Part shown: one piece after another, positions 3,072-8,231 of the stretch
Layout: every line of letters starts with the position of its first letter
Position numbering within the stretch: position 1 is the first letter of the stretch
Assembly (NCBI RefSeq): GCF_054482595.1
Contig: NZ_CM137008.1
Strand: one strand, 5' to 3'
Length of the DNA stretch: 64,000 nt
The notes under the pieces: model-generated
Told to the model about the DNA's origin: nothing
Databases searched by the model: none
What the model saw: the letters and a program-made list of their open reading frames with translations, nothing else
Program-made: the position numbers and the translations under genes

Positions 3072-5606
3072 TTAATTACTACCAAACATATCTTTAATCC
3101 AACCGGCTACACCGTCGCTGTCTTTCTGCTCTTGCTGAGCAGGTTGCTGTTGCGGCTGTTGCTGCGGCTGAGAAGACTGATCAAACGGATTGCCTGACGG
3201 CTGCTGCTGCATCTCACTCTGCTGGCACAGCGATTGCGGATCGCTGGTCCAGACCGGCAAGACACGCATGCCACCGCTGCAAACAAAGTTGCCGTCGTAG
3301 TCCACGCCCATATCTGCAATATCTTCTGGCGGAACAAGATTCAGCGGCGTTGGCGTCTGGTTAGCCAGATAACGCTGATAAATCGACATTGCCCCGCTGG
3401 CACCATACAGTTTGGTCGGCTGGTTGTTATCACGGCCGACCCAGGTGATGGTCACCGTGCTGCCGTCAATGCCCGCAAACCAGGTATCTACGTTATTGTT
3501 GGTAGTCCCTGTTTTCCCTGCCAGATGCAGGTTCGGGTATTTCGCCCCAAGCTGACGACCCGTACCACGTTGTACCACCTGCTGCATGGTCCATAGTGTC
3601 AGATACGCCGCCTGCGCCGGAACAGCGCGTTCCGCCTGCGGGAAGCTCTGATACAGCACTTTGCCATCTTCCGCGATTACCGAACGCAGCGCAGAAAGCG
3701 GTGCACGGTTACCACCGCTGGCGATGGTCTGGAATGCCTGCGCCACTTCGATTGGCGTTAAGTTCAACGCCCCCAGCAGCATTGCCGGAACCGGATGCAA
3801 CTGATCTTTCGGTACGCCCAGTTTGATCCAGGTATCCGTAACCGCAGGCAGCCCCAGCGCCATCCCCAGATTTACCGTCGGCACGTTCATCGAACGGGTC
3901 AACGCATCCACCAGCATCACTCTGCCGCTTTCGCTATAACGACGGTCATCATTCTGCGGTGACCAGACCTGGCCATTCGGCTGACGCAGCGCAATTGGCG
4001 CATCCGCAATCCACGTATTCAGACGATAGATTTTCGGCTGGCTTAAGGCCGTCAGATAAGTCGCTGGTTTTGCAAGGGAACCAATCGAACGACGCGCCTG
4101 CATCGCACGGTTGTAGCCCGCAAACTGCGGCTCAGAACCTCCGACCATCGCACGAACTTCACCACTAAAGCGGTCGACGACCACAATCGCGGTTTCCAGA
4201 TCGCTCAGCTTACGCTGTTTCTTAAGTGCCGGAATGCCTTCCACGGCGGCTTTTTCTGCCGCGTCCTGGGCCACCGAGTCAAAGGTAGTGAAGATCTTCA
4301 CGCCGGAGAGATCTTTTACCTTATCGCCTAATTTAGCCTGAAGCTCCTGACGCACCAGTTGCATAAAGGCTGGCTGAGGAGAGATCACCCCACCGCGCGG
4401 CTGAACACCCAGCGGACGCGCACTCAACATGTCATAGAGTTCTTGATCAATAATCTGTTGCTGTTGCAGCAGACGCAGTACCAGATTACGTCGCTCCAGC
4501 GCCAGTTTCGGGTTACGCCACGGGTTGTAGATGGACGCTCCTTTCACCATACCGACTAACAGCGCCTGCTGATCGAGGCTCAATTCTTCTACCGGGCGAC
4601 CAAAGTAATACAAGCTCGCCAGCGGGAAGCCGCGGATTTCGTTGTCGCCGCTCTGACCGAGATACACCTCGTTCATATACAGCTCAAGAATACGGTCTTT
4701 GCTGTAACGCGCGTCCATGATCAGCGCCATGTAGGCTTCATTCGCTTTACGCCAGTAAGAGCGCTCGCTGGAGAGGAACAGGTTTTTCACCAGCTGCTGC
4801 GTCAGCGTACTCGCCCCCTGCACCGTTCGACCTGCGGTCAGGTTTGCCAGCACCGCACGTCCGATGGAGTAGAGACTGATCCCATCATGCTCGTAGAAAT
4901 GACGGTCTTCTGTCGCCAGCAAAGTATCCACCAGCAAATCCGGGAAACCACTGCGCGGCACAAACAAACGCTGCTCACCGTTTGGTGAGGAGATCATGGT
5001 GATCAGACGCGGATCAAGACGGAAGAAACCGAACTGACGGTTGTTCTCCATATTGACGATGGTCGCCAGATGATCGCCATCAAAGGTCAGACGCGCACGC
5101 ACCTGCCCTTCTTTGCTGTCCGGGAAATCAAACGGACGGCGGATCATCTCAATGCTGTTAGCCTGCACAGTAAATTCGCCAGGACGGGTCATTTTCGACA
5201 CCTGACGATACTGGGTTGCCTCCAGCAGCTTCACCATTTCGTTCTTGCTGATGGTCATGTCTGGCTCAAGGTTGACCATTCGGCCATAAACTGCCGCAGG
5301 CAGTTGCCAGACCTTGCCATCAATACGGCTGCGAATTTTTTGATCGAGATAAACGCCGTAAATGGCGATCAGCACGGCAAAAACGATAGCCAGTTTTAAC
5401 AGCAGCCATAGCCAGCCGCGTTTGCCACGAGGCTTACGCCCTTTGCCTTTGCCCTTACCTTTGCGCGGCATCGGTTCTTCATCCTCATAGTCATCATAAT
5501 CGTCGTAATCATCGTCATCTTCGTAACGACGACGGCTTACCTTTTGTTTGACCGGACGCGTCGGTTTCCCTTTGCGTCCAATTGGCTCGCGGTCATTCCC
5601 GGCCAT
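3072..5606 (-). CDS. mrcB: Bifunctional penicillin-binding protein 1B (glycosyltransferase/transpeptidase)
   Basis: ORF-track 849 aa; start trimmed to [13 protein letters not shown] (844 aa); contains the STLTQQ glycosyltransferase motif and transpeptidase domain; acidic [15 protein letters not shown] then [11 protein letters not shown]-terminal segment. Confidence 0.93.
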
Positions 5607-5704
5607 GCTTTTTCTCCGCAATATTCAGGCGCAAAAGCCCGATTTTCTGTTCTTCTGTTACAAGACAGAAGAAGATATCTCTCAAAATTTGAGCTCGATC
5701 GGTC

Positions 5705-5789
5705 CCCTCTCCCTTAAGGGAGAGGGTTAGGGTGAGGGTGAACGTGCGCGCTGATGCCCTCACCCCGGCCCTCTCCCACAGGGAGAGGG
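5705..5789. repeat. Array of three GC-rich hairpins (stems ccctctccc/gggagaggg, gggtgaggg/ccctcaccc, ccctctccc/gggagaggg) between hrpB stop and mrcB start
   Basis: Read directly: ccctctccc-ttaa-gggagaggg; gggtgaggg-N18-ccctcaccc; ccctctccc-aca-gggagaggg. Starts about 13 nt after the hrpB stop. Likely terminator or intergenic repeat element. Confidence 0.5.
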
Positions 5790-5801
5790 AGAAAACCAAC
5801 C

Positions 5802-8231
5802 TTACGAATACTTTTTCGTCCGTCGCGTCGGTGCCGTGTTTGCCGGGTCGTCCGGCCAGACGTGTTTGGGATAACGCCCTTTCATCTCTTTTTGCACCTC
5901 ACGATACGCCCCTTTCCAGAAGGCCCCCAAATCACGCGTGATTTGCAGCGGCCTTTGGGCAGGTGAAAGCAATTCCAGCACCAGCGGCACGCGCCCCTGG
6001 GCGATCGTCGGATTGGTGGCCTCACCAAACATCTCCTGCATTCTCACCGCCAGCGCGGGCGGGTTATCTTCATGATAACGAATGGCGATCCGGCTTCCCG
6101 TCGGCACAGTGTAATGCGCAGGCAATTCACTATCCAGACGTTGCTGCATTCCCCAATCAAGTAATCCGCGTAGTGCCTGATAAATGTCGAGTGATTTCAG
6201 GCCGCGTAGTGAATGTACACCGGCCATATGTGGCAGCAGCCACGTTTCCAGCGTCGCCAACAAACTTTCATCATCAACCGCTGGCCAGTCATATTCTGGC
6301 AACCACTTTCCGGCGCATAACAAACGCAAGCGTAGCTGTTCCGCTTCCGCCGTCCAGTTGAGCACGCTTAAACCTTTATCACGGATGCCGTTAAGCATCG
6401 CCTGATGCAACTCGTCTTCTGACGGTTTCGCCAACGGCTGCACTTTCACCGTCAACTGACCGATTTGCAGCCGACGCCAGGCTTTCAGTGTACCTTGCGC
6501 GTCATCCCATTCCACGGTGTCAGATTGCTGCACCAGCTGCGGACTGCGTCGCACTAATTCATCAATATCGACCGGTAACGCCAGTAAAATCCGCGCATCC
6601 GGCGAGGCGCTGCCCTGCAATAATAACGGTGCGATCAACCATTCGTGGCGGCTTAGCGCGTCGTCGGCATCGAGCATCGCCCCCATGCCGTTTGCCAGTT
6701 GATAGCGTCCATCTTGCCCACGGCGGCGAGCAATGCGATCGGCAAACGCCCCGGCAAGTAGCGGCGCGATAAGCGAACTGTCTGCCTCACCGCCGCGTAC
6801 GTTTAAGCGTTTTAACAGTTGCTGACTACGTTGCTGCCAGGCTGGTTGATTGCGCGAAAACGCCACGCCCAGGTCACTATTGCCCATCCGTGGCGGCTCT
6901 TCGAGAATGGCGGCAATTTTTGCCGCGGTAGCAGCTTCGTCGTCGCTCTTTGCGCTAACCAGCATTGCCGCTAAACGCGGATCGTTACCCAGCGCTGCCA
7001 TTTTTTGCCCCTGCGCACTAAGCCGTTCACCGTCCAGCGCCCCCAGCATCTTTAACAGGCGTTTCGCGGCCAGTAAATTCACTGCTGGCGGTTGATCCAG
7101 CCAGCTCATCTGCGCTGGATCGCTGCATCCCCATTGCAGTAATTCCATCAGCAAACCGGAAAGATCGCTTTGTAATATTTCCGGTTCACTTTGCGCCGCG
7201 GCGCGTTCTGCTTGTTCCTTGGCGATTAAATGCTGGCAGATACCCGACTCCAGACGCCCGGCGCGCCCGGCACGCTGCGTCATGGATGCCTGGCTAACGC
7301 GTTGAGTAATCAGTCGCGTAAGCCCCGTGCGCGGATCAAAACGCGCCACACGCTCCTGGGCACAATCCACCACCAGACGAATACCTTCAATGGTTAAACT
7401 GGTTTCAGCAATATTGGTCGCCAGCACCACTTTGCGCATCCCTTGCGGTGCCGGGAGGATCGCTTTTCGCTGATCGTTCAGCGACAACGCGCCATACAGC
7501 GGGCAGAGCAACACATCACTGCCGATGCGCGAAGCCAGTTGTTCCTGCACACGCTGAATTTCTCCGACGCCCGGTAAAAATAACAGTAATGATCCGCTTT
7601 CCTGACGCAGCATTTCGGCGGTAGCAACCGCGACGGCTTCGTCAAAACGCTGATGCGCGGGCAACGGAAAATAGCGGCGCTCAACCGGAAACGAGCGCCC
7701 TTCTGAGATGACGACGGGCGCTTCTGGTAGCATTTGTTGCAAGCGGTCGTTGTCCAGCGTAGCTGACATAATCAGCAGTTTAAGGTCATCGCGCAGGCCT
7801 TGTTGCACGTCTAGTAACAACGCCAGCGCCAAATCCGCCTGCAAGCTGCGTTCATGGAATTCATCGAGAATCACCAGCCCAACACCGCTCAGTTCCGGGT
7901 CACGCTGGATCATCCGCGTCAGCACGCCTTCGGTAACCACTTCCAGGCGGGTATTTGGCCCGACGCAGTTTTGCGCACGCATCCGGTAGCCAACGGTATC
8001 GCCTGGCTTTTCGTTAAGCAGCTCCGCCAGCCGTTGCGCGACGTTACGCGCCGCCAGACGACGCGGCTCCAGCAGGATAATTTTCCCGTTAATGCCGGGA
8101 TGCGCCAGCAGTTGCAGCGGCAGCCAGGTTGATTTCCCGGCCCCGGTCGGCGCACTTAATAATACCTGCGGCGCACAATCGAGAGCGGTAAGTAATTCAG
8201 GTAAGACGGCAGCAACGGGCAACGACGACAC
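5802..8231 (-). CDS. hrpB: ATP-dependent RNA helicase HrpB (DEAH-box)
   Basis: ORF-track 824 aa; trimmed to GTG start giving 809 aa beginning (M)SSLPVAAVLPELL; motifs APTGAGKST and DEFHER. Confidence 0.85.
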   Translation of the reverse strand: MSSLPVAAVLPELLTALDCAPQVLLSAPTGAGKSTWLPLQLLAHPGINGKIILLEPRRLAARNVAQRLAELLNEKPGDTVGYRMRAQNCVGPNTRLEVVTEGVLTRMIQRDPELSGVGLVILDEFHERSLQADLALALLLDVQQGLRDDLKLLIMSATLDNDRLQQMLPEAPVVISEGRSFPVERRYFPLPAHQRFDEAVAVATAEMLRQESGSLLLFLPGVGEIQRVQEQLASRIGSDVLLCPLYGALSLNDQRKAILPAPQGMRKVVLATNIAETSLTIEGIRLVVDCAQERVARFDPRTGLTRLITQRVSQASMTQRAGRAGRLESGICQHLIAKEQAERAAAQSEPEILQSDLSGLLMELLQWGCSDPAQMSWLDQPPAVNLLAAKRLLKMLGALDGERLSAQGQKMAALGNDPRLAAMLVSAKSDDEAATAAKIAAILEEPPRMGNSDLGVAFSRNQPAWQQRSQQLLKRLNVRGGEADSSLIAPLLAGAFADRIARRRGQDGRYQLANGMGAMLDADDALSRHEWLIAPLLLQGSASPDARILLALPVDIDELVRRSPQLVQQSDTVEWDDAQGTLKAWRRLQIGQLTVKVQPLAKPSEDELHQAMLNGIRDKGLSVLNWTAEAEQLRLRLLCAGKWLPEYDWPAVDDESLLATLETWLLPHMAGVHSLRGLKSLDIYQALRGLLDWGMQQRLDSELPAHYTVPTGSRIAIRYHEDNPPALAVRMQEMFGEATNPTIAQGRVPLVLELLSPAQRPLQITRDLGAFWKGAYREVQKEMKGRYPKHVWPDDPANTAPTRRTKKYS

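Follow-up and report, generated by a model that had tools for sequence, protein, structure and literature searches.

A BoxC repeat pair and a conserved hairpin in the spacer between hrpB and mrcB

The hrpB-mrcB spacer and the identity of its hairpin array

The window analysed here, a stretch of 64,000 nucleotides, carries on its minus strand an hrpB-like open reading frame (8276-5802), followed by an mrcB-like frame with its ATG at 5606; both names were confirmed by annotated E. coli records. The genes are separated by a spacer of 195 bp, in which an array of three hairpins (5705-5789, 85 bp) starts 12 nt past the hrpB stop codon (5804-5802) and is located 99-183 nt upstream of the mrcB ATG. 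An earlier note on this DNA had described hairpins 1 and 3 as sharing an identical 9-bp stem and flanking a third hairpin, and direct reading together with a repeat finder confirmed this arrangement:

5705-5713 / 5718-5726: hairpin 1, CCCTCTCCC / GGGAGAGGG, loop TTAA
5730-5738 / 5757-5765: central hairpin, GGGTGAGGG / CCCTCACCC, 18-nt loop
5769-5777 / 5781-5789: hairpin 3, CCCTCTCCC / GGGAGAGGG, loop ACA

Zero chance matches of these motifs were expected in the window. The inverted arms of the array have a 21-nt core, which is 86% complementary, and the full units measure 33-34 nt; both units contain G3-N3-G3-N3-G3-N3-G3 tracts. Because the 9-nt blocks are identical, each can pair with a near or a distant partner, and two exclusive folds are possible, as the earlier note had supposed: a nested hairpin (-66.0 kcal/mol as RNA, -32.3 as DNA) and a row of three hairpins (-58.0 kcal/mol as RNA, -30.2 as DNA). 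On both strands, the 211-nt spacer folds far better than its shuffled versions (z = -8.1 and -6.1), none of which, among 200, folded as well.

A match to known structured RNAs was not found: an Rfam scan of positions 5000-6500 at a permissive E-value returned no hit better than E = 0.07, and all hits were eukaryotic miRNA models far below their gathering scores. The suggestion of a small structured RNA or sRNA is not supported by these hits, which are noise. The array had also been described as not being a canonical REP unit, which is correct, as the REP consensus GCC(G/T)GATGCG(G/A)CG...CTTATC(C/A)GGCCTAC with up to 3 mismatches matched the window only at 58765-58800 and not at the array. In the K-12 RefSeq record, no feature is annotated in the hrpB-mrcB spacer.

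The decisive step was the search for further copies, which the earlier note had proposed. Across 4,524 E. coli genomes, a 96-nt query covering the element gave 42,186 BLAST places; individual genomes have up to 21 of them, the median being 8. These numbers settle the identity of the array as a dispersed repeat. The published core consensus CCCTCNCCC-N3-6-GGGNGAGGG-N3-GGGNGAGGG (Holder 2015, PMC4666352) has two exact matches here, at 5705-5738 on the plus strand and 5789-5757 on the minus strand, with 0 expected in shuffles. Judging from its sequence, the three-hairpin array is an already catalogued copy of BoxC, a convergent pair of one type A and one type B unit, and the composite comprises the following parts:

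5705-5738, plus strand: BoxC/TMECO unit of type A (second loop TTA), CCCTCTCCC-TTAA-GGGAGAGGG-TTA-GGGTGAGGG, an exact consensus match made up of hairpin 1 plus the central hairpin's 5' arm; TMECO no. 2 in Table 1 of Holder 2015, K-12 164,631-164,597 (minus strand), and HPG1 no. 6 of Kaplan 2016
5757-5789, minus strand: BoxC/TMECO unit of type B (second loop CCG), CCCTCTCCC-TGT-GGGAGAGGG-CCG-GGGTGAGGG, an exact consensus match made up of hairpin 3 plus the central hairpin's 3' arm; TMECO no. 1 in the same table, K-12 164,547-164,580 (plus strand), and HPG2 no. 5 of Kaplan 2016
5739-5756: central spacer of the composite, 18 nt, TGAACGTGCGCGCTGATG on the plus strand, from the alignment of paired K-12 copies
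5790-5801, minus strand: B-side tail, GGTTGGTTTTCT, directly 3' of the hrpB stop codon, from the alignment of K-12 pairs
5691-5704, minus strand: A-side tail, GACCGATCGAGCTC, with the pattern GAC.G....GAGC common to other copies in the K-12 alignment

Holder 2015 (PMC4666352), where the repeat is named TMECO and the same motif is said to have been described earlier as BoxC and PIT, lists 23 units in K-12 and counts TMECO no. 1 and no. 2 as one of five inverted A and B pairs. Kaplan 2016 (PMC5100583) places HPGQ sites no. 6 and no. 5 between hrpB and mrcB. We re-found both units at their Table 1 coordinates, between the end of hrpB (164,534) and the start of mrcB (164,730) in K-12; the pair is intergenic, and the element is multi-copy. 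The rule stated in Holder 2015 that inverted pairs always consist of one A and one B unit holds at this locus, where the plus-strand unit has TTA and the minus-strand unit CCG. The spacer of the window is 98% identical to that of K-12 with 2 SNPs, one of which changes the first loop (TTAA versus TTGA, in the TMECO unit's own 5' to 3' direction), and is otherwise structurally alike. We take BoxC, PIT, TMECO and HPGQ (HPG1/HPG2) to be one and the same repeat. The name BoxC reportedly goes back to Bergler in 1992 and Bachellier in the 1990s, and PIT elements are said to have been introduced by Hoyne and Maher in 2000.

When the four convergent K-12 pairs were aligned, the repeat was seen to reach beyond the published core motif: the tails and the central spacer align among the pairs, and the composite therefore fills positions ~5691-5801 of the window. 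The central spacer measures 27 nt in the three other pairs, and the 18 nt found here represent a short variant. A T-rich TTTTCY tract in the B-side tail, the whole of which (5790-5801) is missing in the empty allele described below, is common to other type B copies; such a tract before the C-block of HPG2 was already remarked on by Kaplan 2016 (PMC5100583). The finding is thus a catalogued repeat, and not a candidate riboswitch, sRNA or new class of terminator. As best explanation, in which we have high confidence, the array is one BoxC composite, a dispersed, GC-rich, palindromic intergenic repeat of Enterobacteriaceae without a regulatory design specific to this locus, which was acquired as a derived insertion within Escherichia and would fix the 3' end of the hrpB mRNA.

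Alleles and occupancy of the spacer

A 441-nt query spanning the locus revealed several allele classes among 5,425 E. coli genomes:

full BoxC pair
12-bp deletion between CCCT direct repeats
64-bp deletion between direct repeats, which fuses hairpins 1 and 3 into one hairpin
93-bp spacer without BoxC material (empty)

The K-12-type central region is present in ~3,210 genomes, the empty junction in 1,471-1,489 of 5,426 (~27%), and a flipped junction in 14; the collapsed, single-hairpin allele is put at ~325 genomes by subtraction only (3,535 - 3,210). Empty, forward and flipped states thus all segregate within E. coli. E. albertii, E. whittamii and Escherichia sp. MOD1-EC7003 have the empty 93-bp spacer, which argues that the pair is a derived insertion within Escherichia. 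Since BoxC units occupy this position in many other genera as well, the pair may alternatively be older and have been lost repeatedly, or have spread by lateral transfer.

Comparison of empty and filled sites indicates that ~114 nt stand in place of 12 nt (net +102 bp), directly upstream of a conserved block that precedes mrcB. The replacement starts at the second base of the hrpB stop codon, which changes from TGA to TAA. No target-site duplication was visible in this comparison; 12 nt were replaced instead. With regard to the features that define MITEs, the locus thus has empty sites and inverted arms, without a visible target-site duplication. In the flipped state, as seen in 'E. coli' E69 and the bona fide E. 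coli CP53, a closely related composite lies in opposite orientation within a spacer that also measures 195 bp. An identical 52-nt stretch is common to the CP53 insert and the reverse-complemented K-12 insert, while the A unit and both tails differ.

At the DNA level, the repeated 9-mers of the BoxC pair would promote slippage deletions, and slippage between them explains the collapsed alleles; deletion to a single hairpin was described as a 'palindrome effect' in Holder 2015 (PMC4666352). These alleles also bear on a different reading, in which the element acts as DNA, its intrastrand triplex or G-quadruplex stalling replication or repair and thereby raising local genomic variability, with no role as RNA. 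Single-stranded units of identical sequence form such structures in vitro according to CD and NMR data (Holder 2015, PMC4666352; Kaplan 2016, PMC5100583), Holder 2015 further reports polymerase stops and a higher variability around TMECO loci, both units carry G3 tracts, and several deletion alleles at our locus are bounded by the repeated 9-mers. In the same study, however, in-vivo DMS footprinting gave no support for a stable triplex and the double-stranded form behaved as a duplex, and slippage alone suffices for deletions between short direct repeats. A DNA-level action would moreover explain a consequence of the element, but not why it is kept or spreads. We regard this reading as possible yet less probable than its opposite; it is compatible with the BoxC insertion proposed above rather than exclusive of it.

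The distribution in other Enterobacteriaceae was assessed with a degenerate-pattern scan of one genome per species, which returned 120 orthologous hrpB-mrcB loci. BoxC units occur at the same place in many genera, always between the hrpB stop and the conserved TTGAGAGAT block. Their orientation is mostly flipped in Enterobacter, Lelliottia, Huaxiibacter, Phytobacter, Kosakonia, Intestinirhabdus and strain RIT691, the last of which has four units in its spacer, while Pseudocitrobacter and Kluyvera show the K-12 orientation. Sister taxa can be empty, as two Lelliottia genomes are. Whatever the genus, each repeat insertion is found upstream of the conserved block. In Salmonella arizonae, a REP-like sequence was observed in place of BoxC.

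BoxC hairpins reach 1.45 per kb in these spacers (13 of 114 species) versus 0.038 per kb in 885 kb of flanking DNA, an enrichment that may reflect target preference, ancient polymorphism or lateral transfer. It is conceivable, if rather unlikely, that BoxC composites are site-preferring mobile palindromes which have repeatedly colonised the gap between the hrpB stop and the mrcB block, in both orientations and in at least a dozen enterobacterial genera, and that a composite behind a gene lacking a terminator (hrpB, lldD) becomes a hairpin that defines the RNA 3' end. If true, BoxC would gain a dispersal logic and a transcript-level function, neither of which has been established in 30 years of descriptions. 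In Holder 2015 and Kaplan 2016, we did not find mention of the empty Escherichia outgroups, the flipped allele inside E. coli, the occupancy of the spacer in many genera, or the RNA 3' end that maps to the array foot, to which we now turn.

An RNA 3' end mapped behind hrpB

Term-seq data for K-12 (Adams 2021, PMC7815308) contain the row '164636 + 986.765 orphan ...GGGAGAGGGGACCG|ATCGAGCACA', and the sequence at this 164,636 (+) end reads ...CCCTCTCCCTCAAGGGAGAGGGGACCG|ATCGAGCACA. The position corresponds to 5700 in the window, inside the A-side tail and 5 nt past the array foot, that is, past the last stem. The signal is modest, with 987 reads in one of three growth conditions, and it does not appear in the sheet for LB at OD 0.4. 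A second case is found at lldD, whose primary 3' end (3,781,065) lies 4 nt past BoxC no. 17.

The mapped end at hrpB, despite the absence of a U-tract, suggests that the BoxC pair most likely forms or protects the 3' end of the hrpB mRNA; exonuclease trimming and termination would be equally expected to leave such an end. According to our model, the pair would be transcribed as the hrpB 3' UTR and fold into a very stable hairpin (about -66 kcal/mol), which would fix the 3' end of the message. Most likely, the hairpin would stop 3'->5' exonucleases after (Rho-dependent) termination further downstream, much like REP elements; less likely, it would help factor-dependent termination itself. As a side effect, hrpB transcription could be partly insulated from the mrcB promoter region.

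The earlier note had also considered a terminator of hrpB, and a plain intrinsic (Rho-independent) terminator, in which a GC-rich hairpin releases RNA polymerase, does have points in its favour: the hairpin is GC-rich, very stable and only 12 nt past the hrpB stop, the Term-seq end lies just behind it, and the spacer of the empty allele and of many genera holds no other terminator-like hairpin. Several observations nevertheless make this quite improbable. No U-tract follows any stem on either strand, where the sequence reads GACCGATCGAG (minus) and AGAAAACCAAC (plus), and a promoter and terminator consensus scan of both strands from 5600 to 5810 found neither a terminator-like nor a sigma-70 site in the element. 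PIT elements had neither promoter nor terminator activity, as far as an earlier study is represented by its citation in Holder 2015 (PMC4666352). The end at the lldD BoxC foot has an intrinsic-terminator score of 1.3 (threshold 3.0) and lies within a Rho-termination region. Transcripts of ilvC, finally, read through a single BoxC unit and end beyond it, at a conventional terminator, and ~27% of E. coli genomes do without the element altogether. What stands of the terminator suggestion is hence the association with an RNA 3' end, and not its canonical form.

An RNA 3' end at the BoxC foot is not a family-wide rule either, and we rejected it as such. From Table 1 and the gene directions, 12 further foot positions were predicted in K-12, none of which coincides with a Term-seq 3' end; together with the ilvC read-through, this indicates that 3'-end formation is not a general property of BoxC. 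One nearby Term-seq match among the predicted feet is the ordinary terminator of ppiC. The fepB leader contains a strong 3' end, 624,680 (-), which does not conform to the foot model, being located 4 nt upstream of BoxC no. 8. Even so, at two loci published RNA 3' ends fall 4-5 nt beyond a BoxC hairpin, which gives the repeat a candidate role that is akin to that of REP and can be tested.

The mrcB leader and comparison with known systems

Between the array and mrcB lies a second type of structure, which differs from the repeat in its conservation:

5650-5673: fourth hairpin, TTCTTCTGT / ACAGAAGAA, which reads TTCTTCTGT-cttgta-ACAGAAGAA on the mrcB-sense (minus) strand; separate from the repeat
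5607-5685, minus strand: conserved mrcB-upstream block, consisting of TTGAGAGAT, hairpin 4, GAGAAT, a small CGGGC/GCCTG stem and a GGAGA Shine-Dalgarno sequence, in this order, with the mrcB ATG at 5606

The fourth hairpin had been noticed before and is indeed present, at 5650-5673 rather than at 5646-5672; like the stems of the array, it is not expected by chance. In an alignment of 61 distinct leaders, the block extends over ~85 nt from an invariant TTGAGAGA to the mrcB ATG, and it is found in 113 of 121 sequences (the window and 120 orthologous Enterobacteriaceae loci). The hairpin occurs in all E. coli alleles, including the empty one. Across the 61 distinct sequences, 91.4% of cells are paired and compensatory double changes affect 5 of the 9 pairs, one of which shows six pair types; none of 500 shuffles reached the observed score, slid controls stayed at or below 58%, and RNAalifold recovered the same stem independently. 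The fourth hairpin is a conserved, covarying stem-loop of the mrcB-upstream block and not BoxC. G.U outnumber A.C combinations by 60 to 13, which favours an RNA on the mrcB-sense strand.

The Rfam scan of 5000-6500 returned no family for this hairpin or the block, and a literature search on mrcB UTRs retrieved nothing on the mrcB leader. From SELEX data, Shimada 2014 assigned a constitutive RpoD promoter to the spacer, TTGAGA (5685-5680)-17-TGTAAC (5662-5657), which coincides with the start of the block and the loop of the hairpin. Its -10 hexamer TGTAAC is weak, with neither A2 nor T6 in place, and shows no conservation in the other genera. The fourth hairpin may reside inside the mrcB mRNA, or only in RNA that reads through from hrpB. 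The block may be a control element, not described so far, of PBP1b, which is a major cell-wall synthase and relevant to antibiotics. A coding interpretation of the conserved leader, for instance as a uORF, was rejected: open frames are common in it (70 and 81 of 99), yet codon periodicity is lacking and the length classes are not multiples of 3.

For the array itself, a regulatory function in the mrcB leader had been proposed as well, namely a cis-acting RNA switch in which three hairpins or one nested hairpin set mrcB expression. The element does lie upstream of mrcB and has two alternative, very stable folds, and Kaplan 2016 (PMC5100583), on the basis of CD measurements in vitro, proposed that the motif can switch among G-quadruplex, hairpin and duplex. 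The array is, however, missing in ~27% of E. coli genomes as well as in E. albertii, E. whittamii and a further Escherichia species; 14 E. coli genomes carry it flipped and others truncated, and BoxC also lies beside unrelated genes. No Rfam family matches it, the nested fold is 8 kcal/mol more stable than its competitor, and neither a ligand pocket nor an anti-Shine-Dalgarno logic is evident. The SELEX-assigned mrcB promoter is located downstream of the array, moreover, and the mapped 3' end suggests that array-containing transcripts stop before mrcB. We thus consider such a switch very unlikely.

Weakest of all is the reading that the spacer encodes a real protein of 68 amino acids, with incidental hairpins. 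The frame in question is as follows:

5593-5799, minus strand: TTG-initiated ORF of 68 codons, which runs through the BoxC pair and the leader, overlaps the mrcB start and fits the description of the hypothetical protein 'D8B36_18480' in one MG1655 record

A 2024 biofilm paper treated D8B36_18480, 'between mrcB and hrpB', as a conserved small protein and reported an 18-fold drop in csgA expression upon ectopic expression of the cloned fragment, but we hold the protein to be scarcely credible, as the N-terminal half is simply an in-frame translation of BoxC (…SLSLWERAGVRA…TLTLTLSLKGEG…) that the empty, collapsed and 12-bp alleles have either lost or changed, the conserved part lacks codon periodicity (entropy 0.63/0.62/0.57) and varies in length by non-multiples of 3 across genera, the frame overlaps mrcB and is unannotated in the RefSeq K-12 and PGAP records examined, and the csgA phenotype could stem from RNA or DNA of the multicopy fragment. 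From its sequence, the ORF is most likely an annotation artefact of the BoxC repeat, and the phenotype ascribed to it needs a control at the RNA and DNA level.

Taken as a whole, the earlier interpretation is partly supported, as the array is a hairpin associated with an RNA 3' end and not a canonical terminator, an sRNA or a switch for mrcB. Two modest leads remain, the conserved hairpin of the mrcB leader on the one hand, and the dynamics of BoxC at this locus with its link to RNA 3' ends on the other.

Among known systems, riboswitches and other conserved leader RNAs differ from the array, which is absent from the outgroups and from ~27% of E. coli, varies in orientation and matches no Rfam family. 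Intrinsic terminators resemble it in the GC-rich stem-loop shortly past a stop codon and in the RNA 3' end mapped beside it, but the array has no U-tract, the analogous lldD site scores low, and negative terminator assays for PIT have been reported, as far as they are known from later citation. ERIC/IRU elements of enterobacteria and the Correia/NEMIS elements of Neisseria share with BoxC the long terminal inverted arms, the presence/absence polymorphism between close relatives, and the co-transcription with neighbouring genes into long RNA hairpins; BoxC differs in that its insertion has no visible target-site duplication and its arms are internally palindromic. To our knowledge, BoxC has no RAYT-type transposase partner and no cognate transposase. 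REP elements and BIMEs are likewise short, GC-rich palindromic intergenic repeats that often form inverted pairs just past stop codons, but the sequence of BoxC is unrelated, the REP consensus has no match at the array, and about 20-30 BoxC copies stand against several hundred REP. REP elements, once transcribed, hold up 3' exonucleases and so stabilise the mRNA upstream of them, although they do not truly terminate transcription. By analogy, BoxC is best read as a selfish or neutral repeat that would fix an mRNA 3' end where it comes to lie behind a gene without a terminator of its own.

Repeat occupancy of the hrpB-mrcB gap

Across many genera, BoxC units occupy the same gap, from the hrpB stop codon to the TTGAGAGAT block upstream of mrcB, and they are found there in both orientations. 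The density of BoxC is 1.45/kb in the hrpB-mrcB spacers versus 0.038/kb in the flanks, and sister taxa of occupied genomes have an empty gap. Strain RIT691 carries four units in a 465-bp spacer, and Pseudocitrobacter faecalis has tandem composites whose short central spacer is the same as in E. coli.

Orthologous loci with BoxC in the hrpB-mrcB spacer
L028, L037, L039, L040, L046, L052, L090, L123
Further loci: L022, L023, L042, L096, L106, L067, L073

In 14 E. coli genomes the BoxC composite of this spacer is flipped. The one-per-species loci add two further Escherichia genomes, labelled E. coli, in which it is likewise flipped. The flipped-allele spacer measures 195 bp, equal to the K-12-type spacer, and 52 nt are identical between the flipped insert and the K-12 insert read in reverse complement.

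Flipped BoxC composites in the hrpB-mrcB spacer
L130 (E. coli CP53), 133-327
L084 (E69)
L027, a collapsed, one-hairpin version of this orientation

The hrpB stop codon, compared between window 5802-5804 and 217-219 of sequence L002, tracks the allele: it is TGA when the spacer is empty and TAA with either the K-12-type or the flipped insertion. Because the codon differs with the allele, the insertion boundary is placed inside it.

Where other genera have BoxC, Salmonella enterica subsp. arizonae (L061) has a REP-like sequence, GCCAGATAAGGCGTTAATCGCCATCCGGCA, in the spacer upstream of mrcB. It appears that repeats of different families can occupy this site. Elsewhere in the window lies a canonical REP unit:
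58765-58800, minus strand: canonical REP unit, 1 mismatch to consensus

Reading frame and RNA ends at BoxC

One open reading frame runs through the BoxC pair:
5593-5799, minus strand: 68 codons, TTG start

This frame fits the description of the hypothetical protein D8B36_18480, for which a 2024 paper reported curli repression upon over-expression. Empty alleles are without its annotated form, and it looks like the BoxC repeat read in frame.

With 103,563 reads, the Term-seq 3' end at K-12 position 624,680 (minus strand), in the fepB leader, is very strong. On the transcribed strand it precedes BoxC unit no. 8 by 4 nt, adjoining 243-277 of sequence L006, and it is at odds with the pattern of hrpB and lldD, whose 3' ends map 4-5 nt past the BoxC hairpin (Adams 2021).

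The conserved block upstream of mrcB

5607-5685, minus strand: conserved block of about 85 nt, from the alignment of orthologous loci
5650-5673, minus strand: stem-loop within this block, with covariation

The block, kept in 113 of the 121 orthologous Enterobacteriaceae sequences examined, comprises in order TTGAGAGAT, the stem-loop, GAGAAT, a small GC stem and GGAGA-ATG. Compensatory covariation is strong in the stem-loop, and its G.U bias favours the mrcB-sense strand. Rfam contains no family for the block, which may represent an undescribed cis element for the expression of PBP1b, the mrcB product.
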